A DNA stretch of 64,000 nucleotides, from the NCBI GenBank assembly GCA_044226015.1, contig JBGAHS010000001.1:64001-128000 (forward strand), read 5' to 3'. Position numbers and translations under genes: made by a program. Of this stretch, positions 15,576 to 37,801 are shown in pieces. Numbering within the stretch: position 1 is the stretch's first letter; each line of letters starts with the position of its first letter. A model generated the notes under the pieces. That model was not told where the DNA came from, ran no database searches, and saw only the letters and a list, made by a program, of their open reading frames with translations. This stretch comes from Candidatus Obscuribacteraceae bacterium (GTDB lineage: Bacteria; Cyanobacteriota; Vampirovibrionia; Obscuribacterales; Obscuribacteraceae).

Positions 15576-16280
15576 TTAATAAATGAGTTTTGTGGTGGTG
15601 TATGTTATTTCTGTTATTAGACTGTAGTCCAGGCGAGCGATTTCCGTTACTGTGAACGTGGCTTGAGAATAAAGTTGAATAGGCACTTCTTTTGACGGTT
15701 CAGTTGATGCGTTGAAGTCACACGAAGTCATGGTTTGGTATCGTCGGAGCGTAAATTTGTCCTTTTCGAGCCAAATCGTTGTCCTTAAACCAGAAGGCCT
15801 CTCCAAAACAAGCTTATAGCAGCTTATCCCCTCGATTTCTTCATCTTGCTTCGGGGTAATTTCTGAAAAGCCTTCGGTCCAAGCATTCATGTTCTCCTTA
15901 ACTGAGGGGAAAAGGATGCAAGGAATGACAAGTGCGCCTGAGCCGATCACTCCTGTAGCTTGTGCTAATGCTAAATACAAAGCTTTTGATTTGAGTCTCT
16001 TTGACAAGCCGTATGAGAAATAAGTTTCTGCGTCATCTGATTCAACAAGTCCTGTTCGGTTGTTTTTGTGCCATTCGAACTTGTATACGGCAGGGGCTTT
16101 GTATTTTGTGCAAAATTCAACACTAGGTTTTGGTCGATCATGGTCAGGAAAACTCCATTGCCGAATACAACCAACATCTTCGTATTCGCGACAAGACACA
16201 TATCGACTAATGAATTCCTCAAACACTGCTGGCACGTTCAATATCATTACCTCACCACAATCTAAATCGCTTAATTGCAT
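15576..16280 (-). CDS. Partner/putative immunity gene of Rhs tip cassette 1; LolA/DUF2092-like beta protein
   Basis: Overlaps the cassette 1 stop, co-directional; EEIEGISCYKL...TIWLEKD pattern resembles LolA-like proteins. Confidence 0.6.
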   Translation of the reverse strand: MQLSDLDCGEVMILNVPAVFEEFISRYVSCREYEDVGCIRQWSFPDHDRPKPSVEFCTKYKAPAVYKFEWHKNNRTGLVESDDAETYFSYGLSKRLKSKALYLALAQATGVIGSGALVIPCILFPSVKENMNAWTEGFSEITPKQDEEIEGISCYKLVLERPSGLRTTIWLEKDKFTLRRYQTMTSCDFNASTEPSKEVPIQLYSQATFTVTEIARLDYSLITEITYTTTKLIY

Positions 16281-17160
16281 CCCATTGCGTTTTCAGTGCG
16301 TTCATAGCTTCGTTTAATGCTTGTTTCGATTGACCTAGGTTCCAAGCGATTGCGGGGTCAATGCCGTTAGCTGAAATACACTCCAAAAGAGATATGACAG
16401 CTCCAGTCAGGCACGTATCATAGGCCACAGGGCAAGGATTAATTTGGTGTTGAATTGAGTTTGGACCGTAAGATTCATAGCATGCTGCCTTTAGCGCATC
16501 ATAGCTCAGCAAACAGCTTTTGCTAGCACTTCCTGTTGGATCTAATTCATTGATTGCTTGGAGAAGATATTTTTCGCTGAGCCTGCCAGCTGTTCCCCGA
16601 AAGGGAAAAGGCAGCGTTTCACCTTTTCCATAGTCATTGGGCGTTAATCCTGTGAAATCGACGAAGTTAGTCGGGCCATTTCCAACGTAAACGTATAGAT
16701 TAGTTCCTCCTGCTTCCTCAAACGGATCTCTGTTGACAAACCTACCCCTTGAAGGAGCATATACTCTGAAGACCGGCATGTTAAGTCCGCTTCTAGAATG
16801 GTAGTAGTAATTTGCATACTGGAATTCTGCGTCGGCACTACCATTTAGTTTGACAACAAGCCCATAAGGATCATAATTGTACTGTGCTTCAATAGCAGTT
16901 ATTCCCCCCACAGTCTTAGTCAGTTCCCTGATGGAACCCAGGCGGTCTTTACTGTAAGAGTATTGATTGGAACCTGCAATGGTGAAGTTGACTTGTCCTT
17001 GATTCAAGAATTGTTTGCCAATACTCAGGCTACCTGACGCATCCCGTTCCTCACACCTAGCTGCCCCGCACCACAAATGCTGTTTCGTCGAAGTGACACT
17101 GCCAGCAGTGCGCTCTTCGATTTTCGTTGCGCGCGAAAGTGCATCATACGAAAATTGGGT
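16252..17160 (-). CDS. Silent Rhs C-terminal cassette 1 (Rhs core end + variable Cys-containing tip); no native start
   Basis: In-frame TQFSYDALSRATKIEERTAGSVTSTKQHLWCG shared with the full Rhs; YYHSRSGL...NRDP...PTNFVDFTGL junction. Confidence 0.88.
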   Translation of the reverse strand, partial: TQFSYDALSRATKIEERTAGSVTSTKQHLWCGAARCEERDASGSLSIGKQFLNQGQVNFTIAGSNQYSYSKDRLGSIRELTKTVGGITAIEAQYNYDPYGLVVKLNGSADAEFQYANYYYHSRSGLNMPVFRVYAPSRGRFVNRDPFEEAGGTNLYVYVGNGPTNFVDFTGLTPNDYGKGETLPFPFRGTAGRLSEKYLLQAINELDPTGSASKSCLLSYDALKAACYESYGPNSIQHQINPCPVAYDTCLTGAVISLLECISANGIDPAIAWNLGQSKQALNEAMNALKTQWDAIKRFRLW

Positions 17161-17202
17161 GATGTTCCCAGTGCGATTTGATTGGATTTCAGAGACTTTT
17201 AA
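17149..17202 (-). repeat. Cassette junction repeat (13-bp core + ~40-bp leader), copy at cassette 1
   Basis: Minus strand reads TTAAAAGTCTCTGAAATCCAATCAAATCGCACTGGGAACAT-CACCCAATTTTCG. Confidence 0.9.
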
Positions 17203-17357: not shown

Positions 17358-18056
17358 TTAAGTGCTGGGATTGGCGCGGAGCTGACAAATCAAAATTTTT
17401 TCCACAATTTCGTTCTTTATAGATATTCCGGACTCGTTTTCAACTAAAGATAAATCCAGAGATTGGTAAATCCGCAGTGCCTGCGCCCAGCGTTGTAGCT
17501 CCATAAGACTATCTGCTAAATTGATCTGATTTTCTAAATCAATTTCATCGGCGTTCGCTGAACGTAATTCAACTGCTTTTACAAAGCAGTCTAAAGCTTG
17601 TTCCAGATAAGCGGTCCTCATCGATGGATCACAGGGGTAATCCTTAAGGATCCTACCTTTTTGCGCCAGAAATCCATCATTTAGTGGAAACATCGAAATG
17701 GCCTTATCGGCAATTAAAAGTGCATCTTTGGCGACTTGGAGTTTCTCTGCAATTGATAATGGGTTCTTTTTTGTCATCCATTTGTGTATGGCCAAACTGA
17801 TCCATGTTAGAAACGTTCCCTCATCCTTCTCTGCAAGCTCGTAGATCGCGCAAACTGTCTTCCATCCAGCCGGAAAGTCCACTCGATGAGCAAGTACTAT
17901 TAGTCTTTCGTCCTCTGTAAATCCAGAATTTGCCGTGGACCTCAGGAAATGCCGGAGCTTGTCTTTGCTTATGAATTGGTCTACTTTTGTGTTGTCGAGC
18001 ACCGTCTGAAATTGCCGACCAGCATCTGTATTCCACTTATTAATGTACTCTGCCAT
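17358..18056 (-). CDS. Putative immunity protein of cassette 2 (helical/TPR-like)
   Basis: Start overlaps the cassette 2 stop; LEQALDCFVKAVEL and LADSLMELQRWAQALRIYQ TPR-like helices. Confidence 0.7.
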   Translation of the reverse strand: MAEYINKWNTDAGRQFQTVLDNTKVDQFISKDKLRHFLRSTANSGFTEDERLIVLAHRVDFPAGWKTVCAIYELAEKDEGTFLTWISLAIHKWMTKKNPLSIAEKLQVAKDALLIADKAISMFPLNDGFLAQKGRILKDYPCDPSMRTAYLEQALDCFVKAVELRSANADEIDLENQINLADSLMELQRWAQALRIYQSLDLSLVENESGISIKNEIVEKILICQLRANPST

Positions 18057-18903
18057 TAGACACCTCCATAAACCGGGTTGCCTGGCCAGGGCAGTAAAAT
18101 GGTATCAAATAAATCCACCATGGCAATTGTGGTGGAACAGCCTTGGGCAACGGTAGCGGCAGCCTGGTTTCGTCGTGGGATTTTTCAATTGGCTGCTTTT
18201 TCGGTATCGTTCGGTAATCTGGTGGTCTTTTGCCACAGTACTCCCAGCTTCCAGAAAATGTTTCGCCTTTTCCAACAGAATCATTGCATGCCGCGTCATT
18301 TTTGTAACAGCATCCTGGATCCCGACCAGCTTTCAAGCATTTTTGAGTCTGCTGCTCACAACAATCTTTGCTTGAGCAACAAGCTAATCCGTATGGGTCC
18401 ATGAATATTGTTGGAGCATTATTTGCGTATTCGAACAAATTCGTTCCGATATTTTCCCCAAGCGGATCTCTGCTTAACCACCGGGCGAATGAGGGTGCAT
18501 AGTTTCTGAAAAGCGTTTGGTTCATGCCTGAGTTCTGGTGGAAGTACATACCAGCGTAGCCGAAGTCTGAAAACGTTCCGCTCGTGCTTAAGTAAACAAG
18601 CCGTCCGTAAGGCTCATATGAAACTATAAGATCAATGAGTAAAGAGGCACCAGTAGTGTGCGTCATTTCTCTCACTGACCCCAGGTGATCAAATGTGAAG
18701 AAATGGGTTGTTGATGCACTCGCGGCAAATATCACCTCTCCTTTGCCAAAAAACTGCTTGCCATTACTCAAACTACCAGTGCCATCTCTTTCCTCGCACC
18801 TAGCGGACCCGCACCACAAATGTTGCTTTGTGGAAGTGACACTGCCAGCAGTGCGCTCCTCGATTTTAGTTGCGCGCGAAAGTGCATCATGCGAAAATTG
18901 GGT
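18040..18903 (-). CDS. Silent Rhs C-terminal cassette 2 (Cys-rich tip)
   Basis: TQFSHDALSRATKIEERTAG..., WLSRDPLG and PTIFMDPYGL; tip CCSSKDCC...CC; core at 18892-18904 with a degenerate leader. Confidence 0.88.
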   Translation of the reverse strand, partial: TQFSHDALSRATKIEERTAGSVTSTKQHLWCGSARCEERDGTGSLSNGKQFFGKGEVIFAASASTTHFFTFDHLGSVREMTHTTGASLLIDLIVSYEPYGRLVYLSTSGTFSDFGYAGMYFHQNSGMNQTLFRNYAPSFARWLSRDPLGENIGTNLFEYANNAPTIFMDPYGLACCSSKDCCEQQTQKCLKAGRDPGCCYKNDAACNDSVGKGETFSGSWEYCGKRPPDYRTIPKKQPIEKSHDETRLPLPLPKAVPPQLPWWIYLIPFYCPGQATRFMEVSNGRVH

Positions 18904-19158
18904 GATGTTTATGGTGGGAGAAGTCTTGATTTCGGTGAAGTCGAATGATGCAGCCAAAGTCTCTGGGTGAGAAGTCCGTCGTGCTTTTAATTCTTCCAGT
19001 GGAAGAGGTTCGAGGTTTCCGCATCCTCATGGTAATAAAAGTCAGCTGAATTCAAGGCTAAGCATTGCTCAAATTTTTGAAATGTGCATAACAGCGACCG
19101 CATCAACTATAATTTAAGTCATAGTTAGTTATGACTTACAAAAGTCCATTTTTTAGCC

Positions 19159-19761
19159 GTGGATCGATTTAAGGATTATTCGCAATTGAAAACATACTCG
19201 GACAAAGGGATCACCGAGTACGTTTCGGGGAATGGAGAGTTATTGCTTCTGGCAAGCTTTTCGACAACTTTTGAACGTGGCCAGTTGATTATCTTTGATT
19301 ACAAAAACGAAACCAGAACGCCGACAGTAGGACGCGACGGAAAATTACTTTTTAAGGGATTTAGCCCCTTTTTTCAATGCCGAATGGAATTCGATTTCAA
19401 GAATGGCCATCTGACCTACACTCCTGCGAGTCCTTCATTGAAGGAGCTAGGAAAAGGCGGTCAGCTCGTAGACTTGATTAGTGAAATAAGAATTGTCTCG
19501 ATAATTCCTTCTATGTTATTTGGACTCTATTCTCTGCCATTTGCAAACTCAGAATCGATCATTGTTCCATCAGAAGTTGAACTCGCAACAGGAACATCAA
19601 CTAGAAAAATCCGCTACAACAACAGTGGCTACATTGAGGAAATCATCAGAGACTCCGTACAGGAAGACCGCTCTGTTTTCCTTTCTGGATTGCAGCTAAC
19701 AAAATCTACTTCCTCTTACAACACTAAAATTCTGGTGGGAGAACATCGCTGGGAGGAGTAA
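19159..19761 (+). CDS. Hypothetical protein, LolA/DUF2092-like N-terminus
   Basis: YSQLKTYSDKG...FSTTFER...IFDY resembles the N-terminal part of 15576..16280. Confidence 0.5.
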   Translation: MDRFKDYSQLKTYSDKGITEYVSGNGELLLLASFSTTFERGQLIIFDYKNETRTPTVGRDGKLLFKGFSPFFQCRMEFDFKNGHLTYTPASPSLKELGKGGQLVDLISEIRIVSIIPSMLFGLYSLPFANSESIIVPSEVELATGTSTRKIRYNNSGYIEEIIRDSVQEDRSVFLSGLQLTKSTSSYNTKILVGEHRWEE

Positions 19762-19829
19762 CTCCCAGAATGCATAGCAGAATGTCCAATGAAAGTCTTG
19801 CTTCGTTCAACTGCAATCGATACTTTAAG

Positions 19830-19890
19830 GAAGGTTCCCAGCGGATTCAGCTCTGTGGTGACTCTACCCATTTCATCGAAGGACCAACGT
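19830..19890 (-). repeat. 61-bp fragment of the Rhs gene body (copy of 33606..33666), inverted
   Basis: Reverse complement matches 33606..33666 with 2 mismatches (RWSFDEMGRVTxELNPLGTF). Confidence 0.9.
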
Positions 19891-20057
19891 TTACCAGGCT
19901 CTGAGAATTCCAGACCACTCAACTGTCCCGGCTTATCAAATAACTCTCGCACTTTGCTTCGTGCTCAAATGGTGGCTCAAAGTTTTTGGCTAGATATGGG
20001 CATTACAGAGAATCGAGTATGTATACTGTATAGTGTTAGCCACTGTATGAGGCTCTA

Positions 20058-20435
20058 ATGACGTTTCTTATACATCAATGTCGGCACTTTATTCGACGAA
20101 CCGAACTAAGCGTACAAATTTTTTTTGGGTTCACTCCTGATTTCGAAAAATTAGATTACGTGTTTTACTCGCGCCCCCTCTTTTCCAAGGAAGGTTTGAT
20201 CAGGGATCACTTATCTTTACTCCCATTTGCAGACACCTCCTTGAAGCGAGTTGTTAAAGACTTGGGTGGTTGGGAGCATATTACAGATCCCGAGTATTTA
20301 CCGAATAGCGAAGAGTATGAAAGACTAGCCGAAGTCGGTTTTTCAAAGGATGATTTTAATAAAACTAGAGAGTATCTGTCCGATAGAAGCGCCTATAACC
20401 GAAGAGCCCTAGCTCGACAAAAGGAAAAGAAGTAA
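20058..20435 (+). CDS. Hypothetical protein convergent with cassette 3
   Basis: 125-aa ORF ending 13 bp from the cassette 3 stop. Confidence 0.5.
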   Translation: MTFLIHQCRHFIRRTELSVQIFFGFTPDFEKLDYVFYSRPLFSKEGLIRDHLSLLPFADTSLKRVVKDLGGWEHITDPEYLPNSEEYERLAEVGFSKDDFNKTREYLSDRSAYNRRALARQKEKK

Positions 20436-20448
20436 TCTCCTAATTTTT

Positions 20449-21297
20449 TCACTGACTAAGATTGACCGTTGCTCCGGGGAACTTCGTTAGACATTTATTA
20501 ATATCTTCTGCAAAATCAGTATCACAATCCTCCAGTTCCTGAGCTAGCACCGGATTGTTACTGGCTTCCGGCTCGTTGGCATGGCAGCCTAATTTGTCGC
20601 TCCGGCAATCATTCCATTTGTTCAGCGCTTTAAGAACACACATGTTCATTTTCATCTGAATAAAATTCATTTTGATATTTTTTATGGCGTTAGTGATTGC
20701 GTGCGCTGAAATCATCATAACGGCTGTGCTAGCCACGACGGCAGCGCCGACTGGGGTAAGGGCGATAGTCGCTGCCTGAGCATATCGACCGGACGGATCT
20801 ATATCCAAAGTTGGAGAGTTTTCTACATATCCGTAAAGATTCAACCCTCCTTTTTCTCCAATCGGATCTCTGTTGATGAATCTACCAAGAGCAGCATTAT
20901 AAGCCCTGTAGACCGGCATGCTGAGTCCACTTCTTCCATGCAGATAGTATCCTGCATATTGCATGTCAGCAGAGCTGGTGCCCGTCACAATGGTCTCAGC
21001 GACCACACCATAAGGATCATATGAATATCGGGTTTTAATGGCACCAGTGGAATCGGTCAGCTCTCTTATAGAGCCCAGGTGATCTTTGTTATAGAAATAA
21101 TTTGCGGGCGTGCCACCACTAAAGTTCACCTGGCCTCTGCTGAAGAATTGCTTACCATTGCTGAGACTGCCTGATGCATCTAGTTCCTCGCATCGCTCAC
21201 TCCCGCACCACAAATGTTGCTTCGTCGACGTAACACTACCTGCGGTGCGCTCTTCGATTTTCGTGGCACGCGAAAGTGCATCATACGAAAATTGGGT
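20449..21297 (-). CDS. Silent Rhs C-terminal cassette 3 (hydrophobic helix + Cys-spaced helical tip)
   Basis: Same in-frame TQFSYDALSR junction; KDHLGSIRE, FINRDPIG and DIDPSGR motifs. Confidence 0.88.
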   Translation of the reverse strand, partial: TQFSYDALSRATKIEERTAGSVTSTKQHLWCGSERCEELDASGSLSNGKQFFSRGQVNFSGGTPANYFYNKDHLGSIRELTDSTGAIKTRYSYDPYGVVAETIVTGTSSADMQYAGYYLHGRSGLSMPVYRAYNAALGRFINRDPIGEKGGLNLYGYVENSPTLDIDPSGRYAQAATIALTPVGAAVVASTAVMMISAHAITNAIKNIKMNFIQMKMNMCVLKALNKWNDCRSDKLGCHANEPEASNNPVLAQELEDCDTDFAEDINKCLTKFPGATVNLSQ

Positions 21298-21340
21298 GAT
21301 GTTTCCGGTGGGATTTGATTGGATTTCAGAGGTCTTTAAA
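21286..21340 (-). repeat. Cassette junction repeat (core + leader), copy at cassette 3
   Basis: TTTAAAGACCTCTGAAATCCAATCAAATCCCACCGGAAACAT-CACCCAATTTTCG. Confidence 0.9.
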
Positions 21341-21508
21341 CACTTTACCCGCTACTATCAAAACGAGTTCAAGTAGGAATCGATATTGCGAAAGGGTGAA
21401 CATTTTGCCAAATCGATTCGAAGTCAACCTTTCAGCGCGAACCTGTTAGTAGTTGTACCGCATTATTCCAAACAAAGTCCCATTTCGTCACTCTTGAGGT
21501 GGAGGGAG

Positions 21509-22177
21509 TTACAATGCTGCATTAAGTCTATCGGAGAAAGGGATTCCTTTTTCAATATATTTAAGTCGAATTGAATCCCACGTATAAACATAAGCATGTA
21601 GGAGTTTTCCTCGGTCAACAACGTGGTTGGTAATGATCAGAGTTTTCGGAATTTTTCCTTCTTTTGACAGCACGAATTCTGGTTGATACAAGGATCCTGT
21701 TTCCAATACTTTCTGTATTTTTCCATGAGCGCAAAGGAATACGGTCGTCAAAATACTGCGTGGACCGTCTGAAAGAATAGCCATCTTATCATCCAGACGA
21801 AGGATGGAAATTGGTTTACCGTAGCAGAGTTCGTCAACATCATCGCCATTGTCAGAGCAATAAACTAATCTATTTTTTTTGTCAAAGATTTTTAGAACCG
21901 CTTGTTCCCCGGCTTTGCCCCTGAGCGCCCCAGGCGTTCTCATTATGCGAACAGAGTAGTGTTCAGTCTCGGTGTCGCTTTCGTTTCTAACAGTCCAATC
22001 GTAAAGAAACCAAAGTGAACTGTGTTGATCTCTCCACTTTCTCCAACGCGCAAGGCTTTTCACATCTGCTGTAGTTTTAGCTTTCACTGTTCGAAGCTCT
22101 TCATAGGCGTATCCGGCTGGCAACCAAAGAATCGCGGATATGAAAGACACAGCAAGCACATAAACCAATCCTGGCAT
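21509..22177 (-). CDS. Putative exported immunity protein of cassette 4
   Basis: Starts 3 bp after the cassette 4 stop; N-terminal signal peptide LVYVLAVSFISAILWLPAGYA. Confidence 0.72.
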   Translation of the reverse strand: MPGLVYVLAVSFISAILWLPAGYAYEELRTVKAKTTADVKSLARWRKWRDQHSSLWFLYDWTVRNESDTETEHYSVRIMRTPGALRGKAGEQAVLKIFDKKNRLVYCSDNGDDVDELCYGKPISILRLDDKMAILSDGPRSILTTVFLCAHGKIQKVLETGSLYQPEFVLSKEGKIPKTLIITNHVVDRGKLLHAYVYTWDSIRLKYIEKGIPFSDRLNAAL

Positions 22178-22180
22178 AAA

Positions 22181-23140
22181 TCATCCACCCTTGGACTTTT
22201 GTAAGCAGCCTTTATCGCACCGAGTCTTTTTAGCTTTTAAGCATTTTTCGCATTTTTGAATTGCTCCTAAATATCCGGGATCTCCACCACCAAATTTACT
22301 AATACCCTCCTCCAGCCCGAATTTACTGACGTAATACCCGGCAAGCATGGAACCCGCTCTCAAATTTTTTGCAGGATCTGACATTTCGCTCCACTTCGCA
22401 CCAACTTGGCTTGCAGATTGCTCGTTATATATTTGCAAAAGACCCTTTGCACCAGAGCCTTCTGTGTTGTCTACACTCGGCTCAAAATTATCGGGTGAGT
22501 GTGGAGTGCTTTCACGAAAAGCCATACATAACAAAAATTCCGTACCCAGTTGAGTCCCAACTGTGCCAGCTACGGTCTTGCCTGAATAGTTACAACCTCC
22601 GTCCAGCAACCTAGCAACTTGAACGCAAGTGAGAAGCCCTAGTGGGTCCAGGTAACGAATTGGATTTCCGCCAACATAGCTGTAAATATTTAAATCACCG
22701 GCTTCACCAATTGGATCTCTACTGAGCCATCTGCCTAATGAAGCTGAGTATTGACGAAACCAAGTCATGTTCAATCCACTTCGCATATGTGAGTAGTAAC
22801 CAGCATATTGAAAATCAGCGTCCTGTGAGCCTGAGATCTTGTTGACGACACCATATGGATCATAACCATACAGTGAAACAATGGTCCCTGAGCTATTAGT
22901 TAATTCCCTCACAGATCCAAGCTTATCTATGCAATAAAAATAATTAGATCCTGTGGCAGAATTAAAATTGATTTGTCCCATGCCGCAGAACTGCTTTCCA
23001 TTGCTCAAGCTTCCGGACAGATCTCGTTCTTCAGACTTCTCTGAATCGCACCATAAATGTTGCTTCGTCGAGGTAACACTGCTTGCGGTGCGCTCCTCAA
23101 TCTTCGTTGCGCGCGACAGTGCATCATACGAAAATTGGGT
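22181..23140 (-). CDS. Silent Rhs C-terminal cassette 4 with lytic transglycosylase (SLT/lysozyme-like) tip
   Basis: PIRYLDPLGL junction; tip motifs MAFRES (catalytic Glu), GAKGLLQI and DPAKNLRAGS. Confidence 0.85.
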   Translation of the reverse strand, partial: TQFSYDALSRATKIEERTASSVTSTKQHLWCDSEKSEERDLSGSLSNGKQFCGMGQINFNSATGSNYFYCIDKLGSVRELTNSSGTIVSLYGYDPYGVVNKISGSQDADFQYAGYYSHMRSGLNMTWFRQYSASLGRWLSRDPIGEAGDLNIYSYVGGNPIRYLDPLGLLTCVQVARLLDGGCNYSGKTVAGTVGTQLGTEFLLCMAFRESTPHSPDNFEPSVDNTEGSGAKGLLQIYNEQSASQVGAKWSEMSDPAKNLRAGSMLAGYYVSKFGLEEGISKFGGGDPGYLGAIQKCEKCLKAKKTRCDKGCLQKSKGG

Positions 23141-23182
23141 GATGTTTCCAGTGGGATTTGATTGGTTTTCAGAGGCTTTTAA
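23129..23182 (-). repeat. Cassette junction repeat (core + leader), copy at cassette 4
   Basis: TTAAAAGCCTCTGAAAACCAATCAAATCCCACTGGAAACAT-CACCCAATTTTCG. Confidence 0.9.
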
Positions 23183-23191
23183 CGAGCTGAC

Positions 23192-23515
23192 CTAGCGACA
23201 GGAATTAAGTGCGCTAAAAGTCCGGGGCGGTGTTTTCGTTTGCTCAAGAACAATTCTGCGATCTAGCCAAACGGATTGAAGATGATCGTGGTTCCAAAAG
23301 CTGAGCTGGTCAAGCTCTTTCGCTAAAATGCTTGCCTTTGCAAAGTAGTCTTCAGCGGTTTTAAGGGAATGATTGCGGACTGCATCGTTTCCACATTCGA
23401 TGAGCCTTGCAAGTTCTATGTTCTTCGATCTAACTATGCCGTAATAGCCCACAAGAAGTCCCACAGACAGTGAGGCAAAGATCCTTTTTGACTTCGAGGA
23501 AAATTCTATATTCAT
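23192..23515 (-). CDS. Small membrane-anchored hypothetical protein (possible orphan immunity gene)
   Basis: 107 aa, N-terminal hydrophobic segment; follows the decayed Rhs remnant. Confidence 0.5.
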   Translation of the reverse strand: MNIEFSSKSKRIFASLSVGLLVGYYGIVRSKNIELARLIECGNDAVRNHSLKTAEDYFAKASILAKELDQLSFWNHDHLQSVWLDRRIVLEQTKTPPRTFSALNSCR

Positions 23516-23611
23516 TATTCAGTGCGTATGTGTAAGGATTTACGTCCTTTCGGTCAAACGAGGGAGTCAACTGCTGGCTGATTGAAACCAGGGTTTGGTT
23601 TCACATTGTAA

Positions 23612-23818
23612 TCAATACCGGCATGTAACGTTGTTCCTGGCCCAGCATCGTGAGTCTTTGTAAGCTAGTGGATCACGGGAAAAAAATGCCCCACGAACTG
23701 GCTCATACAATCTGTACACTTGCGCAATTAAACCATTCCGGGAAAGACGATAATAGCCGGCGAAACCGAAGTCTGATTCGCGTGTCCCTGCAATTTTGAT
23801 TGATTGACAATAATACAT
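23612..23818 (-). pseudogene. Decayed Rhs core remnant
   Basis: SDFGFAGYYRLSRNGL...YRLYEP...FFSRDPL matches the Rhs core consensus; lacks the junction repeat and DPxG. Confidence 0.7.
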
Positions 23819-23943
23819 ACGACTTCGACATTGACGTTGTTGTTCGCCAGATTAGGCTACTACGAGTTCTCGGTTTCCTGAACTTACGCTTCTTCCCAAT
23901 CGTATTCTGATTTCAACGTATGTTGGATAGTTCTCTGCACGAA

Positions 23944-24588
23944 TTAAGGTGCATTGTCGACAATTGATTTGTCGGTTTCTATAATTGCCTCAATCGCGGA
24001 GGCGACTCTTTTCAATGTTTCATTACGGGATTTTTTCGCAAGAGACAGGTAACTAGGCAGCATTGTTGAGCGACAGGCTAGCAGCATATTTAGTGCGGTT
24101 ACCTTGTCTAGTGGTTTCTTTGATGTCCACCACAATTGAGCATATGATTCAGATTGGCTCCAGCCTGTCCCGGCTAGCAGTTGCGCCGCGTTGTCTCGAA
24201 TCACTTCACTGAAATCACTCAAAAGAAAATGCATTGCTAGCCGTTCTCTCAATGCAGAGTCTCTCAACCTTCGGCACCGCAGAAGAAAATACAATCTAAT
24301 TGATTCCTCTGGATACGGAAGAATTGCCAACTTTGATATCTCGTCATCAGAAATTGATTTAACAAGCAGTTGTGATTGCCAATCCAGAGTTATTACGTGT
24401 TTTATTGCAAGATGTTCTTTCTTGGTCCAAGCCAATGGTGCAGAATCACAAAGCAACTCACAGAAGTCCTTGACCAGTTCGGCTAGGTTTGAATAGTTAC
24501 TCAAAGAACAATTCTCTTCCTCGATCAATTTAAGGTGCTTCTTCAAGTTCGAAATTTTTTCTTTAAGGATCATTACATTCTTCATCAT
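23944..24588 (-). CDS. Putative immunity protein of cassette 5 (helical/HEAT-like)
   Basis: Start overlaps the cassette 5 stop; EVIRDNAAQLLA and TLKRVASAIEAI helical repeats. Confidence 0.7.
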   Translation of the reverse strand: MMKNVMILKEKISNLKKHLKLIEEENCSLSNYSNLAELVKDFCELLCDSAPLAWTKKEHLAIKHVITLDWQSQLLVKSISDDEISKLAILPYPEESIRLYFLLRCRRLRDSALRERLAMHFLLSDFSEVIRDNAAQLLAGTGWSQSESYAQLWWTSKKPLDKVTALNMLLACRSTMLPSYLSLAKKSRNETLKRVASAIEAIIETDKSIVDNAP

Positions 24589-25474
24589 CTACAGCTGGGG
24601 TGTCGCCTGTAAAGCCACCATTGCATCTTCTTACGCAATAGCTCAAATATTGCACAGCCCAGAGAACACAACACTTGTATTTTCTTGGGTCTGGGTCGCA
24701 TCCGCCCGGTCCGTACATTTTATCGCAATAACCAGCACCAAGTTCTTTTGTATTATGCAGAGCATCAAATTTTTGATGACAACAGCGAAGACATCTCACC
24801 TTAGTACCATCTTGACACTCGAGAAATGGAAATTCATTTGGACGACCAATCGCAAAGTCTTCAGGCCAGGGAGTGAATTGTCTCTTTCGTGGCTTTGCCG
24901 CGTTCATTGTTAGTGGAATGCTAACAGGCGCCCCTGATGCACAAGCGCCTCCAGCGCATCCCATAAGACCTGTGTGGTCTACCCAGCGGATTGGATCATT
25001 GGAAACGTATGAATATAAATTTGGACCAGCGTTTTCACTTAGCGGATCTCTGCTAAGCCATCGACCATTAATTGAGGAATATACTCGATAATACGTCAGA
25101 TTTAAGCCAGATCTGACGTGTAGATAGTAATCTGCATACTGAAAGTCCGCGGAAAGAGTGCCTTGGACTTTGGTGACATCTCCATAAGGTCCATATGCGT
25201 ATTGCGCGACTATAGCGCCAGAGCTATCTGTCATTTCCCTTATACTTGAGGGAGGCGCATCCTTTGTAAATTGGTAGTTTGTACTTGAACCAGCATTAAA
25301 GTCTCGCTGTCCTCTTGCGAAGAATTGTTTACCGCTACCAAAGCCGCCGGTTAGGTCACGCTCCTCGCAACGTTCAGACCCGCACCACAAATGCTGCTTC
25401 GTAGAAGTGACACTGCCAGCGGTGCGCTCCTCGATTTTCGCTGCACGCGAAAGTGCGTCATACGAAAATTGGGT
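24563..25474 (-). CDS. Rhs C-terminal cassette 5 (very Cys-rich tip), immediately downstream of the recombinase
   Basis: NTQFSYDALSRAAKIEERTAG, WLSRDPL and PIRWVDHTGL; core at 25463-25475; only a TTG six codons upstream. Confidence 0.88.
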   Translation of the reverse strand, partial: TQFSYDALSRAAKIEERTAGSVTSTKQHLWCGSERCEERDLTGGFGSGKQFFARGQRDFNAGSSTNYQFTKDAPPSSIREMTDSSGAIVAQYAYGPYGDVTKVQGTLSADFQYADYYLHVRSGLNLTYYRVYSSINGRWLSRDPLSENAGPNLYSYVSNDPIRWVDHTGLMGCAGGACASGAPVSIPLTMNAAKPRKRQFTPWPEDFAIGRPNEFPFLECQDGTKVRCLRCCHQKFDALHNTKELGAGYCDKMYGPGGCDPDPRKYKCCVLWAVQYLSYCVRRCNGGFTGDTPAVDDEECNDP

Positions 25475-25521
25475 GTTTTTGTATGTGTCCAAATGCCGGA
25501 ACTGCCCTGCAGGAATGGATT

Positions 25522-26640
25522 CTAAGAAGTGCTGCTGGAATTCTTGCGAATTTTGTTTGGTGCTTCTTCGTGCCCCATAAGTTTGAGGAAATTGTTCGTA
25601 ATTTTCTCCATCGGCTGCCGTAATCTCTCCACGTCAATGACCAAATATCCAAATGTGGTGTCATTCTTTACGGAATGATTAGCTAGTTTTTTCAATGCAT
25701 AATGAGGAATTCCAAGGCTCTCAGCCTTCGTCAAAAACGTGCGGCGCAGGTCGTGAATTGTAAAGTGACAGTTTGAATGCTCTCGAAGTTTTTGAAGCGT
25801 CGCATCAAAGTGCGTGATGCCAGCACGTCTCCCTGGAAACACAAAATCTGATTTGCTAGAAGCAAACCGTCTCTTTAAGAGCCTTGTCAGAAAACTGCTG
25901 AGAGGGAGTACATGCGCTCTATGGTTTTTAGTTCTCTCTCCATCAATGGCGACAGTTTTTGCTTCGAAATCGATGTCCGACCATCTCAAGGAGGCGGCCT
26001 CAGCTCTCCTGAAACCAGTGAGCAATACGAAGAGAAGATAGTCGCGGACTGTTTCGCTTCGCACAGTCTTCAGAGCCGAATACCACCGAGTCAATTTAGA
26101 GTCTGGAATCATGCCCTGCCTTACAGTCGCCCGATACCAGCGCTTATTTTGTGTAAGCACGTCAACTGGGTTGTTTCTCAATAGCGGGCGCCCGTTTTTC
26201 TCATGATAACGACGAAGAGCGAAATTGAAGAGCATTCTCATAATGCGCATCACCATGTTGGCCTGAAGCTTGCTTGCTTCTGTTGAGTGCGTACCGATAT
26301 CTGAGTGCTTCTTCTCAATCATTGCCGAGCTAATTGAAGACAATGGTAGGTCTATCCAATCACTCAGATGGTGCGCAACAAGAGCGTTGTAGATGCGAAC
26401 AGAAGACTGACGCAATTCTGGCTTCGACTCTAAATAATCTCTGAGAACAGTTCTAAGCGTTTTTCCTCTAGATTTCTTTTTAGAGACCTGGCGCTTTGCG
26501 AAGCTGGTTTGCTTAATGCGATTCTCAATCCTTGAGACTAGACCCGGGCCGCTTTTGATTCTAACCATCACAATAATTCTTAGTTCAGTCATGTGCTTCT
26601 CCACAAATTTTTTTCCAGTTTGGAGATTGGCACTACACAT
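25522..26640 (-). CDS. Tyrosine recombinase/integrase (core-binding + catalytic domains, no obvious arm-binding domain)
   Basis: LLTGFRRAEA (R), RTKNHRAH (K), HDLRRT (HxxR), LANH and TFGY (Y); true start uncertain (possibly MTELR or MVRIK). Confidence 0.92.
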   Translation of the reverse strand: MCSANLQTGKKFVEKHMTELRIIVMVRIKSGPGLVSRIENRIKQTSFAKRQVSKKKSRGKTLRTVLRDYLESKPELRQSSVRIYNALVAHHLSDWIDLPLSSISSAMIEKKHSDIGTHSTEASKLQANMVMRIMRMLFNFALRRYHEKNGRPLLRNNPVDVLTQNKRWYRATVRQGMIPDSKLTRWYSALKTVRSETVRDYLLFVLLTGFRRAEAASLRWSDIDFEAKTVAIDGERTKNHRAHVLPLSSFLTRLLKRRFASSKSDFVFPGRRAGITHFDATLQKLREHSNCHFTIHDLRRTFLTKAESLGIPHYALKKLANHSVKNDTTFGYLVIDVERLRQPMEKITNNFLKLMGHEEAPNKIRKNSSSTS

Positions 26641-26932: not shown

Positions 26933-27790
26933 ATGTCAAAATTTGCGACAATGGCCCTTTCGTTGAGCATTTGTATTTTTGGAAATTTGATTCCAGCAAA
27001 TGCCCAATGTGTTGGCGGAAGTCCTTCATCAGCGGTCACGTCTATAGATGAAACTGGGAATTTTCCATCAAGTCGTATGTTGGTGGACGGGCTAGGAACG
27101 ACCGTGGACACTGGCACCGCAGGAAAGATAAAAGTAAATGTTAGCGCCCTGATTGCTGCACCGCAGCGGGTGGGTTGGTGGACGCCTCTCACGACTGCGG
27201 CAACGACGTTCAGCGCAGTGGGCATGACTGCCGTACCTACTGCATCTGGCACTGCAGCCAATGCTAGTGGCACATCAGGCAACTTGATAAAATACAGTAC
27301 AGCGACAACGGTGAATGCAGTTGGCGGAATTCGGTCAACTGCATTCACTGACGCGCGATATCAGTACTCGCCAACATTTGCTACGAGAGTACGTACCAGC
27401 GCCTCTGGAATAGCGAGCCAACGAATATGGATAGGACTGGCGGCAAGCAACCCCAGCGGAAGTGCTACGCCAACAGCTAATCTCGCCTCATTTCGATATG
27501 ACACCGGTGCTGGCGATACGACGTGGAAATGTGTGAGTTCAAATGCTTCCACAAACACGGTGGTTGACAGTGGAGTTACAGTTGCTACAAGTACTACTTA
27601 CGACATGTTTGTAGACAGCTCCGATCCTTCAAAACTCGTGTACACAATTAACGGTGCTATTGTTGCAACGATCACTACTAATTTGCCAGTGGACAATACA
27701 AACATCGGACCGAATATTTCAATCACAAATCTCCTGGCGGGAACTGCTCGAGATTTGAGCGTCGGCACAACTAGAATCCAGCAATATTAG
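26933..27790 (+). CDS. Secreted Thr/Ser/Ala-rich beta-strand protein, first gene of the Rhs operon
   Basis: AAGGAG RBS; signal peptide ending PANA; beta-rich composition. Confidence 0.75.
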   Translation: MSKFATMALSLSICIFGNLIPANAQCVGGSPSSAVTSIDETGNFPSSRMLVDGLGTTVDTGTAGKIKVNVSALIAAPQRVGWWTPLTTAATTFSAVGMTAVPTASGTAANASGTSGNLIKYSTATTVNAVGGIRSTAFTDARYQYSPTFATRVRTSASGIASQRIWIGLAASNPSGSATPTANLASFRYDTGAGDTTWKCVSSNASTNTVVDSGVTVATSTTYDMFVDSSDPSKLVYTINGAIVATITTNLPVDNTNIGPNISITNLLAGTARDLSVGTTRIQQY

Positions 27791-27800
27791 TGAGGTAACT

Positions 27801-29123
27801 TTGAAAACTGTGAAAAAGTGGTCAAATCATTGTTTTGCGCTTGCTGTTGTATTTCTTGCAGCGCAGCCAGTATTAAGCGCAACGGCTCCAACGCCCTTTA
27901 TTGGAACTGCTGGAGAAATGCTCTCTCCGAAAACGGTCACTATGGGAGTTAAGGCTTCCATTGGGAACTCTATCCACTTTACAACCGACGGAAGTACGCC
28001 TAACGGAGCTAGCACAACCTATCTCAATCCATTCACAGTAACAACTTCTACAACGTTAAAAGCCATTTCCATCGACGGCTCGCCCAATCCCGTAGCTACA
28101 TTGTACATCGATCTGCCGTCAGTGTATCTGGATGCCGAAGAAGGCATTGTTCCAGCTACTGGAAATCCCAACCCAGTGATTGTTTGGACTGACCAATCAG
28201 GAAATTCTAATAGTGCAAGTGCCATTAGCGGACAAGATCCAAAGTTACTTCCAAATTCAATCAATGACTTAGCCGCAATTGAATTCTCGGGACAATATTT
28301 CAACCTTCCTGCTGGTTTTGCTGATTTCACAAAAGGCGTAAGCATATTCATAGTCGCTAAGACTGCCTCCTTGACCGCTGGAGCTACTTTGCTCGATATC
28401 GGCAATGGCAGCAGCGGAAATAACATAAAAGTGCGGATTTCGAATACGGGTTCTAAAGCTGAGTTCGATGTCTATAGTGGTACCACCAGCAGTGCCGCGC
28501 AATCAGCCAGTGCTCTCAGTACCAGTGAGTACACTCTAATTGAAGCTGTGCTTGTTCCGAATGTCTCGGGAACTGATGCGACCGGAACTATCTATGTAAA
28601 TGGGCAGGCTGGAACGCCAGTCACAAACATGTTTTTAGCAGCAAATACAAGTAGGTCTATTAATACAATAGGTGCTGCTGCTGCTGGGTCCAGTCCGTAC
28701 AGCGGAAAGATCGCAGAGCTGCTTATTTTTCCAAACGCTATAAATAATCGACAAGATGTCGAGGCAGTTCTGCTGCAAAAATTTGATTTATTGCGTCAAC
28801 AGCCTCCCACACCACAGATCAGCGTTGCGGGAGGAAATAAGAACGGTCCAACGCAAGTCGTTATAAGTTCGGCAGATGACACATCCGTCCTTCACGTGAC
28901 CACCGACGGAACGACGCCGAACGCCTCCTCTCCCATTTTCAATGGCTGCCCTATTCTCATTAACTACACCACGACGCTGAAAGCTATCGCAGTAAAGAAT
29001 GGAATTTCCAGCAGCGTTGCTTCCGAAACCTATACCCTCAACGCCGACCAATGCCCGACTCCGAGCCCATCGGATATGGTTGCGCCCACAATAAATTTAA
29101 CCGTGCCTGTTCAAAGTCAATAA
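27801..29123 (+). CDS. Secreted protein: two Fn3-associated/chitobiase-C-like domains flanking a LamG/ConA-like domain
   Basis: HFTTDGSTP...TTLKAI and HVTTDGTTP...TTLKAIA; WTDQSGNSN and YSGKIAELLIF motifs; signal peptide. Confidence 0.8.
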   Translation: MKTVKKWSNHCFALAVVFLAAQPVLSATAPTPFIGTAGEMLSPKTVTMGVKASIGNSIHFTTDGSTPNGASTTYLNPFTVTTSTTLKAISIDGSPNPVATLYIDLPSVYLDAEEGIVPATGNPNPVIVWTDQSGNSNSASAISGQDPKLLPNSINDLAAIEFSGQYFNLPAGFADFTKGVSIFIVAKTASLTAGATLLDIGNGSSGNNIKVRISNTGSKAEFDVYSGTTSSAAQSASALSTSEYTLIEAVLVPNVSGTDATGTIYVNGQAGTPVTNMFLAANTSRSINTIGAAAAGSSPYSGKIAELLIFPNAINNRQDVEAVLLQKFDLLRQQPPTPQISVAGGNKNGPTQVVISSADDTSVLHVTTDGTTPNASSPIFNGCPILINYTTTLKAIAVKNGISSSVASETYTLNADQCPTPSPSDMVAPTINLTVPVQSQ

Positions 29124-29139
29124 AAGCGAAGAAGAGAAA

Positions 29140-32100
29140 ATGAAATTTATCAGAATGAATAACCGCTCGCGTTCGGCACTATTGATGGTGCTCCTATTGC
29201 TTAGCATGGTGCCTTCGCAAATGGTTTTATCTGCGCCTGCTGAACGCATTTCAATAAAAAAGCAGCATGAGGCTAGCAACACTGCTAACCCACGCCCAAA
29301 AATTGAAATTGGCGACTCATCGCTTTCATTTCCTGCGTCCCCCACGGACAGTGATCTCATAAATTGCCACGTATTTTTGGAGCCATTAGCACCGTCTGAT
29401 CAAGATGTTAATCAAAAGGAAAACAAAGAGCTTGCGACCGCAATCCTGAAGTATCTAAAAAGGCAGAAATCAGAAGATGTATCTGCACTTACTTCATTCT
29501 TGCAGTCTAATCCTAAGTCACGATGGACGGCTTCTCTCGCGTTGAATGTTGCGCAAAAATTGTTTGATGCGGGTTATCTAAATGAAGCAGCCGATTACTG
29601 GGAAAAATCATGGAATCTGTCTAAAGATAAGAAAGATCCGGCGATGAAAATGGTTGCAAACTCAGCCGTATCGCATTTGGTGCAACTGGAAGCTCGCCTC
29701 GGGTTAGCGGAAAAGCTCGAAGAACATTTGAGATTAGCTTCTTCACGTGTAATGGCGGCGTCAGATATGTTGCGGCTAAAAGCTGCACAAGATGGACTCT
29801 GGACCATGAACCAAAATGAAGGCATTGCCTTCAAATGTGGTCCATATGGGCTAAAGTCCCTTGCACTTTCAAAAAGCCCTGGGCTGCAAACCACTCGCTC
29901 ACCTGAAGAAGTTGATCAAATAATCAAAACCGCAGATTCCACGAAGCGTGGAACAAATCTAGAGCAGTTGAAAGATCTTGCTCGTAAATTGGATTTGGAC
30001 CTTTCACCTGTTAAGCGTAAGTCCGGATCTCAGATTCCAGTTCCTAGCCTCGTGCATTGGTCCAAAGGACACTTTGCTGCCATTCTCGAAGAGTCCAATG
30101 GTTTTTACAAAATCGAAGATCCTACTTTCGATTCTGACGGAACAAAATGGGTGAGCGCAGCTGCTCTTAATGCTGAGAGCGATGGCTATTTCATGATTCC
30201 TTCTGACAAAGTGGGCGCAAACTGGATTACGCTCGACGATAGCGAAGCAAGAAATGTTTGGGGAAAAGGTTATGCCGCGCTTCCTCAACAATTCAAAACT
30301 CCTTATTGCCCAAAAACACCTTGCGCTGGTGGTAATTGCAAGCCCAAGGGAGGATCTGGAGGAGGACCTGATTCGTGTGGTATGCCTGTAGCGTCAGCGT
30401 TTTCAATGAATGCCACCTTGAACATCGTGGATACGCCATTGACGTATTCGCCACCAGTAGGGCCTGAAATGGGGGTAGTTGTAAATTACAACTACAATGA
30501 GGGACAACAACCATCAACGTTTTCTTTCACCAACCTGGGGCATAACTGGAGCCTGAACTGGCTCTCTTACCTTACCATTGATAGCACAGACCCAATCCAC
30601 CGGATAGTTAACGTACGCGTCCGTGGTGGAGGTTATGAGACATACAAGGAGGCATTCAACCACGATGCTTATTCACTGGCGATCATTGCAGAAGTCAACA
30701 ACGCTGGCGTGATTAGTTGGGAGCGACGGATGCCGGACGGAAGTGTCGAGAAATACGAAAGAAAAAATGCAGCAGGCGACACATTCTTTCTAACGCAAGT
30801 ACTCGACCCGCAAGGTAAAGCTGCAGTTTTAGCCTATTCTTCAAACACTGTGACTGACCCAGGCTATTTCCGCCTGGCTTCGATAACAGACGCTTGCGGC
30901 AACTCTCCAATGACTGTTGCGTATGACTCAAACATCTCAACAGACCCTGGCTATTACAAGGTAACCGGGGTGACAGATGGCTTTGGTCGCTCAGCGAGTT
31001 TTGCTTATAGCGCAGATAAGAGCCAGTTGTTGAGCATGACGGATGCAGTTGGTAACCAATCTAGCTTTCGCTATCAGACGGATACGGACTCGACTTTCAT
31101 CAATCTCATGGTGTCACCGTACGGCAGTACGCAATTCTATCGCTACACTCCTGGAGGTGATACCGACACTGTTCCAGAAGGACTAAAATTCACATTGCCA
31201 GACGGAACAAGCACTCGCATCGAAAATTGGTTGAGTTCTATCAAACAAACTTACTTCTGGGATAGAGAAGCCTCTGAAATGTATCCCAACGATGCGTTCA
31301 ACAATGTGTACACACATTGTCAGACCACAAGATGGCTTTTTATTTCGAATTCTATAGAGTCTTCAATCCCTAGCTGGACTAGGAAGCCATTGGAAGCCCC
31401 CGTGAACTATTACAGCGTTGGACAAAGTGGGCAGAATGCAACTTCGGCTGGCGGTCTTACGCGATATCAGCAGATTGCCCAGCAGCTGGTGCCAATAAAA
31501 AATAGTATCACTGTTGGTGGCACCGTTACCGCGGGTAATCTAATCAAGGTTCAAATTCGTGATTTAGGACTTATTGATTCAGGAGACATTGTTCTCTCGT
31601 ACCAGGTCGTCTCTGGCGATACTATTTCTACTATCGCCGCCGGGCTTGCACAGAGTTTCAACAATGATCGGTATTGCCAGGGATATGGCATAACAGCGGC
31701 TGCAGTGGGGAACGTGATAACAGTAACTTCTCTTACTGCCAATGATTTTGACAGTAGCAAATTTGCAAATTTATCGGGTTCAATAACAGAGACCTTAACT
31801 TTTGCGTCTGGAACCAACCGGGTTCAGAACTTCAGTTTCAGCGGCACTCCTACTGCAGGACAGGTGTATGCAATTACTGTTACGGATTCCAGCCTGCCTG
31901 GTGGCTCTCAAACAGTGAGTTATACAGTTCAGGCTGGCGATAGCAATTCAGATATCGCGCAAGCACTTTCACTTGCAGTAAACGCAAATACGAACCTGCA
32001 AACATCTAAGATTTCTTCTGCTTGGACTAGTGCTCCCTATAGCGGGGTGATCGGTCAAATCCCCGCCATTAGCGCGGCTCCCATGCTGGGTTGTCAGTCA

Positions 32101-36069: not shown

Positions 36070-36689
36070 TGATGACCATTAAGCGATATATATCTATCTC
36101 AATGAGCCTTTTGATTCTCATCGGACCTAAAGCTTTTTCAGCACCCATAGAAAAAGGAAGAATGCAGTTAGAAGTATTCAGTCTCGGAAGGCTTAAACAT
36201 CAAAAGCAGAATCAAGCCTGTTTAGGCTTGCGCTTTTTTTGTAATGCCGACAACCCCATTGAAGTTGTGCTGCAATCCTTTTGTGGTAAAGGAGTCGAGT
36301 CAGAGATGCTATTTAATCACAAGAAAGATCCAGGCTCACTCAGAAACGTACTTTTCGCCAACTTCCACTATCAATGGGTAAACCAAAAGGGAAAAACTGT
36401 ATTGGAAGAAACTGCTTATGCTAACCAATCCGAAGTGAAATTGAAAAAAGAACAATGTGGATTTGCCGATGTGTCAGAATCTGCCATGGTTTATCTTCCT
36501 ATCGTGTTACCAACTCCTCCTGGTAAGTACAACTTGAAGGTGCAATTCGACAACACGGCATTGGAAGACGCAAGCCAGTCACGGAACAACATGGGAGTTG
36601 ATGGACCTGACGGAAAGCCGCTGCTTATATCAAAGCCGACGCAGGTATTCGAGGCAATCATGACCGAGCAGGAAATTGTAATCAATTGA
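36069..36689 (+). CDS. Putative exported immunity protein for the currently attached Rhs tip
   Basis: TAATG stop/start overlap with Rhs; signal peptide MMTIKRYISISMSLLILIGPKAFS. Confidence 0.75.
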   Translation: MMTIKRYISISMSLLILIGPKAFSAPIEKGRMQLEVFSLGRLKHQKQNQACLGLRFFCNADNPIEVVLQSFCGKGVESEMLFNHKKDPGSLRNVLFANFHYQWVNQKGKTVLEETAYANQSEVKLKKEQCGFADVSESAMVYLPIVLPTPPGKYNLKVQFDNTALEDASQSRNNMGVDGPDGKPLLISKPTQVFEAIMTEQEIVIN

Positions 36690-36697
36690 GTGCTCAT

Positions 36698-36876: not shown

Positions 36877-36937
36877 TTAAAAACCTCTGAAATCCAATCA
36901 AATTGCAAATTGCACTGGAAACATCACCCAATTTTCG
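36877..36937 (+). repeat. Cassette junction repeat (leader + core), copy at cassette 6
   Basis: TTAAAAACCTCTGAAATCCAATC(AAATTGC)x2-ACTGGAAACAT-CACCCAATTTTCG. Confidence 0.9.
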
Positions 36938-37801
36938 TATGATGCACTTTCGCGCGCCACGAGAATCGAGGAGCGCACCAGCGGTAGCCTTACGTCTACA
37001 AAGCAGCACCTGTGGTGTGGTTCACAGAGGTGCGAGGAAAGGGATGCATCAGGCAGCCTGAGTAACGGGAAGCAGTTCTTCACTCTGGGCCAGAGGATCT
37101 TCACCAGTGGTAGTGGCACTAACTACTTCTATATAAAGGACTCACCTCCCGGCAGCATAAGGGAGATGACCGATGCCTCAGGTGCCATAGCAGCCCAGTA
37201 TGGTTATGGACCATGGGGGGAAGTCACCAAGATTCAGGGAGTCGGGGACTCTGACTTTCAGTATGCCGGTTATTACATTCATTCCAGAAGTGGACTCGGA
37301 CTCACCCGTTATAGAGCCTACAATGCCAATCTCGGTGTTTGGCTTAGCAGAGATCCTAGCGATGATGAGGAAGATGAGCCCAATAGATACAGGTATGTTG
37401 CGAATAATCCGATAAAGTTTAACGATCCTCTTGGTCTGTTCCCCGGTATTCCGGGTCCACCGCCAATACCTAATCCTTCATCCGGAGGCGGGCACATAAT
37501 AGGACCAGCAGGTAGCCCGCCACCTAACGACGAACCAAATGATAATGAGGTATACAATCATCCGGCCTATCTGAATTGCCTGGCTGGTGTACACAACCTA
37601 TTCGATTCCATCCAAGCGCAATACGAAAAAGAGGAAGCTGACGACTTCAAGAAAGCTGGTAAGAATAAGAAGAAGCTAAAGTGCGCACGAGACAAGTGGC
37701 GCAAGAAATGGCAGGACTTCAATGATGATCAAGCGTCGAGATCGGCCGATTGCTTCACAAAGGCGAAGATGATTATGCGACGGGAGAGGGGGTCACGATA
37801 A
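36926..37801 (+). CDS. Silent Rhs C-terminal cassette 6 (Pro-rich linker + helical tip)
   Basis: In-frame TQFSYDALSRATRIEERTSG... 80 codons upstream of the ORF-track ATG at 37166; WLSRDP and PIKFNDPLGL. Confidence 0.88.
   Translation, partial: TQFSYDALSRATRIEERTSGSLTSTKQHLWCGSQRCEERDASGSLSNGKQFFTLGQRIFTSGSGTNYFYIKDSPPGSIREMTDASGAIAAQYGYGPWGEVTKIQGVGDSDFQYAGYYIHSRSGLGLTRYRAYNANLGVWLSRDPSDDEEDEPNRYRYVANNPIKFNDPLGLFPGIPGPPPIPNPSSGGGHIIGPAGSPPPNDEPNDNEVYNHPAYLNCLAGVHNLFDSIQAQYEKEEADDFKKAGKNKKKLKCARDKWRKKWQDFNDDQASRSADCFTKAKMIMRRERGSR

Follow-up and report, generated by a model that had tools for sequence, protein, structure and literature searches.

Two questions are raised by this locus: how one full rhs gene flanked by silent toxin tips would exchange its own tip for another, and what a short non-coding leader is doing in front of most of the silent copies. 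The window, a stretch of 64 kb (G000:C11:64001-128000), contains seven Rhs cores according to a core scan, namely the full rhs gene and six cassettes around it, five of them on the minus strand and one on the plus strand. The parts of the locus are as follows.

26933..29123, plus strand: two genes ahead of rhs, in the central segment (domain search)
29140..36069, plus strand: full rhs gene (2309 aa) with Peptidase_C39, RHS repeats and Rhs-associated core
35088-35094, plus strand: expression-site spacer inside rhs, with the expressed tip beyond it
36051..36689, plus strand: partner gene of the expressed tip, a putative immunity gene by its position
15576..17161, minus strand: cassette 1, open core and tip 16252-17161, partner gene 15576-16280
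17358..18904, minus strand: cassette 2, core and tip 18040-18904, partner gene 17358-18056
19159..21298, minus strand: cassette 3, core and tip 20449-21298, convergent partner gene 20058-20435 (plus strand), then a relic unit (a 61-bp rhs piece, a tip end and gene 19159-19761 on the plus strand) common to the second array described below
21509..23141, minus strand: cassette 4, core and tip 22181-23141, partner gene 21509-22177
23192..25475, minus strand: cassette 5, core and tip 24563-25475, genes 23944-24588 and 23192-23515
36925..38221, plus strand: cassette 6, core and tip 36925-37801, convergent partner gene 37793-38221 (minus strand)

This order, with variable tips and partner genes behind an Rhs core, is that of an Rhs polymorphic toxin locus. 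Every tip begins in frame at a CACCCAA spacer with an 11-bp right arm, the reading frames of the silent tips are open, and five of the six silent tips are inverted relative to rhs. By analogy with Rhs biology the tips would be toxic and the partners neutralising; the domain search named just one of the seven window tips, through a weak SLT match in tip 4 (E 0.0011, below the cut-off). The second of the two genes ahead of rhs encodes LamG and Fn3-associated domains and precedes rhs in relatives too. Gene 26933-27790 had no Pfam or NCBIfam match, and its closest Atlas clusters (score 0.90-0.91) consist mostly of hypothetical proteins from viruses. No ancestral gene order was recovered from the genes flanking the locus.

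A scan of the whole genome identified 25 cores: the seven in the window, 17 in a second array (C11:1.239-1.288 Mb) and one on contig C2. The second array comprises 13 minus-strand and four plus-strand cores around a 5'-truncated rhs and, with one further degenerate site, amounts to 18 sites. No recombinase was found beside it and the locus is decayed. A 173-bp copy of the rhs arm lies inside its left array (G000:C11:1239000-1289000).

The leader was located at the following positions.

17162..17202, minus strand: leader of cassette 1 (spacer 17155-17161)
18905..18974, minus strand: variant, degenerate leader of cassette 2 (spacer 18898-18904), a subtype common to two second-array sites
21299..21340, minus strand: leader of cassette 3, the left flank of its site (spacer 21292-21298)
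23142..23182, minus strand: leader of cassette 4 (spacer 23135-23141)
36877..36924, plus strand: leader of cassette 6, with a 7-bp duplication (spacer 36925-36931)

These coordinates agree with a sequence-only reading of the window, which had described the leader at cassettes 1, 3, 4 and 6 (with the duplication in 6) and in degenerate form at cassette 2. Its absence from the full rhs gene and from cassette 5 was likewise borne out, as was its occurrence on both sides and both strands (minus at cassettes 1-4, plus at 6). The proposed consensus, beginning TTAAAxxCTCTG, needs one correction: three variable bases, not two, follow TTAAA. A 17-mer from the leader matched four times in the window against a mean of 0.06 in shuffled sequence, with none of 100 shuffles reaching four. 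In the 8.19-Mb genome a 19-mer with up to three mismatches gave 14 matches; all 11 with two mismatches or fewer sit 5' of an Rhs core (four in the window, seven in the second array), and the remaining three, each with three mismatches, are unrelated to Rhs cores. The expectation that the leader occurs only at the 5' ends of Rhs cassettes thus holds for all 11 of these copies, so it is not a dispersed repeat. Among 103 other genomes of the family a DNA query matched four at 68-74%, none over the leader, and the exact site pattern had no match in metagenome and viral contigs. Searches of metagenomes, viral contigs and family genomes found no close strain of this genome; protein-based scans for close relatives returned only distant Rhs loci (five and one loci).

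The site itself is best described by counting from the first base of CACCCAA as +1. Positions +1 to +18 are nearly invariant across sites. Third-codon positions within +1 to +16 (six columns) have no variant in 24 sites, against 2-13 variants per column from +19 to +70: the constraint is on the DNA and not on the protein. Foreign tip types join after just 18-21 identical bases. In another Rhs family, six cassettes have their breakpoint at this spacer too, and these have no leader. Two features at the inner edge of the minus-strand array deserve attention here.

25459..25485, minus strand: cassette-5 site, recombinase-proximal and leaderless (spacer CACCCAA 25469-25475)
25522..26640, minus strand: tyrosine recombinase of 372 aa, adjoining cassette 5

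At the cassette-5 site the 7-bp spacer is flanked by ten-base arms that pair at nine of ten positions. A 10-mer that pairs this well occurs at 302 of 8,189,317 genome positions, and the site is the best symmetric one in the genome, where five others reach only 8+8. Arm pairing is 4/10 at the rhs site and 3-5/10 at leader sites, the left half of which is weak. Cassette 5 does not merely lack a leader: a strong site is there, and the stop codon of the recombinase lies 46 bp from its spacer. A different dyad, CATCA-N13-TGATG across the core of leader-bearing sites, had been pointed out earlier. Such a dyad exists, and 19 of the 20 leader-type sites have CAT at -3 to -1, but recombination probably does not use it. 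Its centre is five bases further right and it fits the invariant stretch less well than does a spacer-centred dyad; the stronger dyad, with nine of ten pairs around +1 to +7, is that of the leaderless cassette-5 site, and the earlier reading had misplaced it.

The origin of the recombinase, an integrase ancestry that had escaped the sequence-only reading, became apparent from a tree. Integrase homologues were collected from 61 genomes, together with 60 regions around the top integrase and Rhs hits, and the tree was built from the 56 distinct integrases that aligned over 230 residues or more; neither Rci nor Rin is among the rows. One branch (support 98/100) of 29 rows from 14 genomes includes the window recombinase. 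An Rhs core lies within 5 kb of 27 of the 29 rows inside this branch and of none of the 27 outside it, in a sample of non-independent relatives with many short contigs, where about half of the rows were chosen through Rhs hits and G010, G016, G031 and G006:C15 entered via integrase hits alone. The nearest kin found for the recombinase are arm-bearing integrases: Arm-DNA-bind_3 was detected in 12 of 13 tested relatives, whereas the window recombinase and G006:C15 had no match. The former is a long branch with a replaced N-terminus. G006:C15, also armless, breaks at the downstream position too. When aligned with relatives the catalytic residues of the recombinase are intact; the enzyme could nevertheless be inactive. 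Loss of the arm domain through a single inversion that severed it was considered and rejected, as no relic of the domain was found on contig C11.

In the relatives, 12 integrases from eight other genomes are followed on the same strand by a tip that starts 81-614 bp past their stop codon, and G019 and G097 have tandem arrays of rhs, tip, integrase and tip. Displaced tips match the intact rhs of their own genome from the first base (±1) of AGAT(C/T)A(A/C), a base-exact breakpoint in ten of ten comparisons from four genomes (G019, G097, G104 and G105); around this motif 33-40 of 40 bases are identical downstream against 8-15 of 30 upstream. Direct repeats of the target gene, each starting at a fixed base, surround the element in these four genomes, as for integration of the lambda/P4 type; another mark of that type, an integrase with an arm-binding domain beside its att site, is missing from the window enzyme. 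Inverted arms around the 7-mer are clear only in two G019 cassettes. We infer that elements of tip, immunity gene and integrase insert into rhs in the relatives and supply a new tip. In the proposed ancestry such an element would integrate at the I-x-Y-P codons of rhs, fuse its own tip to the gene and displace the previous tip downstream. Relative to the spacer used in the window, this older site is 28 bp upstream. Several tip pairs or arrays of relatives face each other like shufflon segments (L118 and L119 at G104:C82 and C64; L116/L117 at G097:C3), and the G104:C64 contig has Rhs core sequence at both ends.

Site-specific exchange at the spacer is, in our view, very probable. The published alternative (PMC2935791) is ordinary displacement of Rhs C-termini by homologous recombination, in which the integrase would be a passenger and the leader a copied scar. 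It is consistent with the long and variable core fragments that precede displaced tips in G006:C70, G013 and G084, and with the mosaic composition of the first 120 nt of the tips. Cassette 2 and one site of the second array, for example, have the leader and about 70 nt of tip in common before they diverge, so some exchanges took place beyond the spacer. As a general explanation we consider homologous displacement highly improbable: it does not account for base-exact breakpoints in four other genomes, for invariant wobble positions, for a genome-unique palindrome 46 bp from the enzyme or for an integrase branch restricted to Rhs.

What, then, is the leader? Its last 8-12 bp are likely the left half-site and its sole functional part, and the rest a relic. 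This reading is drawn from the leader's edges, its register, the retention of its last eight bases and the leaderless cassettes with the same spacer. When leaders are compared in pairs, homology mostly breaks off at -29 to -34 and, in a subset, at -41 to -46; truncated cassettes of the relatives start at -28 to -34 (9 of 18), -41 to -46 (seven) and -9 (two). The best conserved outer hexamer of the leader is in register with the older spacer. Because its 5' edge matches the older site, most of the leader is likely a relic. The last eight bases, GG[AG]AACAT, survive in 16 of the 20 leader-type sites. In the proposed course of events the recombinase would have lost its arm-binding domain and the crossover would have moved by 28 bp, after which the stretch between old and new site would have stopped coding in silent cassettes and become the leader.

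That the leader does not match rhs beyond about 10 nt, as reported earlier, is correct for ungapped comparison (-23 to -12 scores strongly negative against 36 intact rhs segments in an ungapped profile), but a weak in-frame likeness remains when gaps are allowed (p≤0.005 for only two of 20 leaders, p 0.03-0.1 for the main type), so that the statistics behind the relic reading are weak. Codon counts are ambiguous, with 13 synonymous and 14 non-synonymous changes against 59 and 8 in tips. An intact coding region of some other rhs paralogue was rejected as the identity of the leader, none having been found in ungapped, gapped and family-genome pattern comparisons; the leader-type peptide pattern occurs in none of the 103 other family genomes. 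Short stranded pieces of rhs coding sequence lie upstream of leaders at 19830-19890, 36698-36836 and 17226-17260, copies of 33606-33666, 34265-34414 and 16871-16905, respectively.

Two functional roles for the leader were weighed. The whole 33-45 bp could be an accessory site, bound by the recombinase or a DNA-bending protein of the host, that sets the pairing of sites and promotes inversion at the expense of deletion. Leaders do resemble one another closely even where the partner genes are unrelated, and their 5' edges cluster; they contain three AATC repeats at 5-bp spacing, and relatives G097/G098 have a conserved upstream motif of their own (GCACCAC..GCGRTGC). However, half of the leader-type sites (10/20) lack the 17-mer, several keep only 8-14 bp, six same-spacer cassettes do without a leader and the enzyme has no arm-binding domain, so that we regard this role as improbable. 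Still less credible is a promoter or translation start that would express orphan tips or immunity genes. Expression of orphan rhs is described elsewhere (PMC5727410), CAT at -3 to -1 reads as ATG on the opposite strand, and two variant leaders of the second array have an in-frame ATG. A promoter scan nevertheless gave 18 sites where 15.4 were expected, with no match recurring at leaders; leaders 1, 3, 4 and 6 lack a start codon and run into an in-frame stop within 60 bp, and the frames on the opposite strand (4-81 codons) are not conserved.

A further candidate, a relic of a FimE-like invertase, was rejected as a source of the leader: three leaders of the second array do have such a relic upstream (NF007371, E 2e-5), yet similarity to it stops at -73, short of the leader. 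The broken gene, for a small FimE-like recombinase, is found again with its upstream region next to Rhs units (L003:13008-13160, window 38486-38587 and G000:C4:23417-23597). Of 103 genomes of the family, 50 have a match to an intact homologue.

The half-site and relic interpretation of the leader does not by itself tell how tips are moved. The reading that we prefer, with a probability of roughly 0.6, combines exchange at the spacer, inversion and a mostly relic leader. The adjacent armless recombinase would swap the predicted toxin tip by DNA inversion at the 7-bp crossover point: a crossover between the rhs site and any site on the opposite strand would turn round the DNA between them and join a new tip to rhs in frame. 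Deletion between sites on the same strand would be kept low by the weak left arms, as proposed for R64. The opposed arrays suggest inversion, and so does the lack of an arm-binding domain in the enzyme. For five tips, inverted orientation is the only way to be reached, and opposed arrays flank rhs in both assembled arrays of this genome. In a hand tally of 23 multi-tip loci from 15 other genomes, many on short contigs, 19 were co-directional and four convergent, and none had a full rhs between opposed arrays. No alternative arrangement of the locus was seen. When window positions 17050-37049 were compared with contigs of four out of five read runs, none of the five joints listed was a strand switch; these contigs have 10-14x coverage and break at repeats, so that a flipped junction could hardly have appeared in them, the joints are only those listed, and of the runs two come from the possible source sample, one had no matches and one, from another study, gave short pieces.

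The sequence-only reading had treated the distribution of leaders as what an inversion model predicts. As a test of inversion that argument is not supported: excision and integration with two primary sites predict the same distribution. Leaderless sites on both sides of the central segment arise under any model with crossover in the spacer. In the second array, a decayed locus, the inner left site carries a leader, within a 451-bp exact inverted duplication around the centre. The movable unit proposed earlier, of tip, partner gene(s) and leader with crossover at the core, fared better and is supported by tip reuse and a shared block: one second-array tip stands behind three different leaders, its copies being 92-96% identical from about -10, and a block of partner gene and leader is common to both arrays (96.5% over 1047 bp). 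Duplicated and shared units imply that conservative inversion alone is insufficient and that copying is needed; occasional excision and re-integration, together with homologous exchange, would explain the units common to both loci.

A rival reading, which we think unlikely, has cassettes moving only as excised circles, without routine inversion, the leader serving as the arm at the cassette end. The symmetric recombinase-side site and the rhs site would then be two primary insertion points, each building an array. Besides predicting the same leader distribution, it agrees with the co-directional tandem arrays of tip and integrase in relatives, with units common to loci 1.15 Mb apart, with a tip present in triplicate and with the symmetric site being a direct repeat of the sites of cassettes 1-4. 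Against it, the rhs site shares an identical spacer with five cassette sites that lie in inverted orientation to it, the enzyme is devoid of the arm-binding domain that is used for directional integration, much as the Rin invertase is described (PMC6109161), and leader sites form no attC-like hairpin above chance (z -0.7 to 1.2). The last finding, along with the failure to match the IntI family (TIGR02249, 20.6 bits against a cut-off of 265), also means that the locus is not an integron.

By site anatomy and layout the locus would work like a shufflon. The site is short and repeated, its right arm conserved and its left arm variable on either side of a spacer; the adjacent tyrosine recombinase is armless; and the silent C-termini are in frame and inverted to the expression site. 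In the R64 shufflon a tyrosine recombinase (Rci, acting on sfx sites) also swaps the C-terminus of one expressed gene, and sfx sites are described as a 7-bp spacer between a left arm that varies and a right arm that is conserved (PMC11852207, PMC11850598). The target is PilV in R64, whereas here it is an Rhs protein with partner genes; furthermore, the constant part of the gene lies inside the invertible segment here, one site is symmetric, and the enzyme comes from a P4-like integrase branch. A similar layout is that of the Rin shufflon reported from Bifidobacterium prophages (PMC6109161), with an armless tyrosine recombinase beside silent C-terminal cassettes, each of which begins at a short asymmetric site. 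Rin acts on phage receptor-binding tips and its inversions were seen in reads, whereas none were seen for this locus; the tips here are chromosomal Rhs tips of 1.7-2.4 kb with predicted immunity genes, and arm-bearing integrative relatives are visible.

Silent arrays of core, tip and partner gene beside a full rhs are also known from Rhs C-terminal displacement (Jackson 2009, PMC2935791; Koskiniemi 2014, PMC3967940), where a circular intermediate is described as pushing the old tip downstream; the published model is homologous and, in the sections drawn on here, notes no co-occurring integrase. The present breakpoints, in contrast, are base-exact and tied to one integrase branch, and the tips lie on both strands. 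Integrase-like genes near Rhs loci were described in the bee gut bacteria Snodgrassella and Gilliamella and suggested to help capture tips (Steele 2017, PMC5727410); the relevant part of that paper defines no site or mechanism. Tyrosine integrases with an attachment site inside a gene are reported for dnaJ2 prophages (PMC6109161) and dusA integrases (PMC4482086). Unlike in these gene-rebuilding elements, the rebuilt 3' end in the relatives studied here is a different tip, so the insertion itself would change the predicted toxin domain. A literature search, largely outside subscription journals and excluding supplements, found no paper on a site-specific switch of Rhs tips. The word 'rhs' is absent from the main text of Milman 2023, whose supplementary tables may list such loci, and the consulted portion of Zhang 2012 mentions recombinases only beside polyimmunity loci.

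A broader reading, to which we give slightly less than even odds, is that this integrase branch is dedicated to Rhs C-terminal displacement, which it drives throughout the family by inserting site-specifically into rhs, and that here an armless descendant made of the inserted elements a toxin-tip shufflon, which stores more than 20 tips at two loci, the leader being a fossil of the older site. If so, the locus is a snapshot of an integrative element becoming a shufflon, and the relatives show the route. If inversion operates, it would be a reversible switch of a predicted toxin in which all immunity genes are retained. With one enzyme, one 27-bp site and natural variant sites defined, displacement of Rhs tips is directly testable, and the natural pairs of symmetric and asymmetric sites bear on how armless recombinases avoid deleting their own arrays.

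Some further observations concern the rest of the genome and of the window. Two more Rhs families have tip arrays running into contig ends (C13 end, C3 start, C3 end and C5 end); one of them breaks at the same 7-bp spacer without a leader, and the full rhs genes of both are absent from the assembly. On C2 (70 kb), which has overlapping contig ends and may be a circular element, the rhs is a full frame of 2886 codons with a tip end resembling a second-array tip, and an intact small tyrosine recombinase follows it. Within the window, a perfect 9-bp inverted repeat with a 6-bp spacer (19116-19139) lies just upstream of the convergent gene 19159-19761 and is a possible operator. Degenerate coding repeats were found at 12569-12778 (42/84 bp, in a 297-aa ORF) and at 52913-53149 (a lysine/aspartate/alanine-rich run in a 919-aa ORF), and tandem repeats of 18-19 bp with the core TTTGTGATGCGTTCAG occupy 42389-42501.
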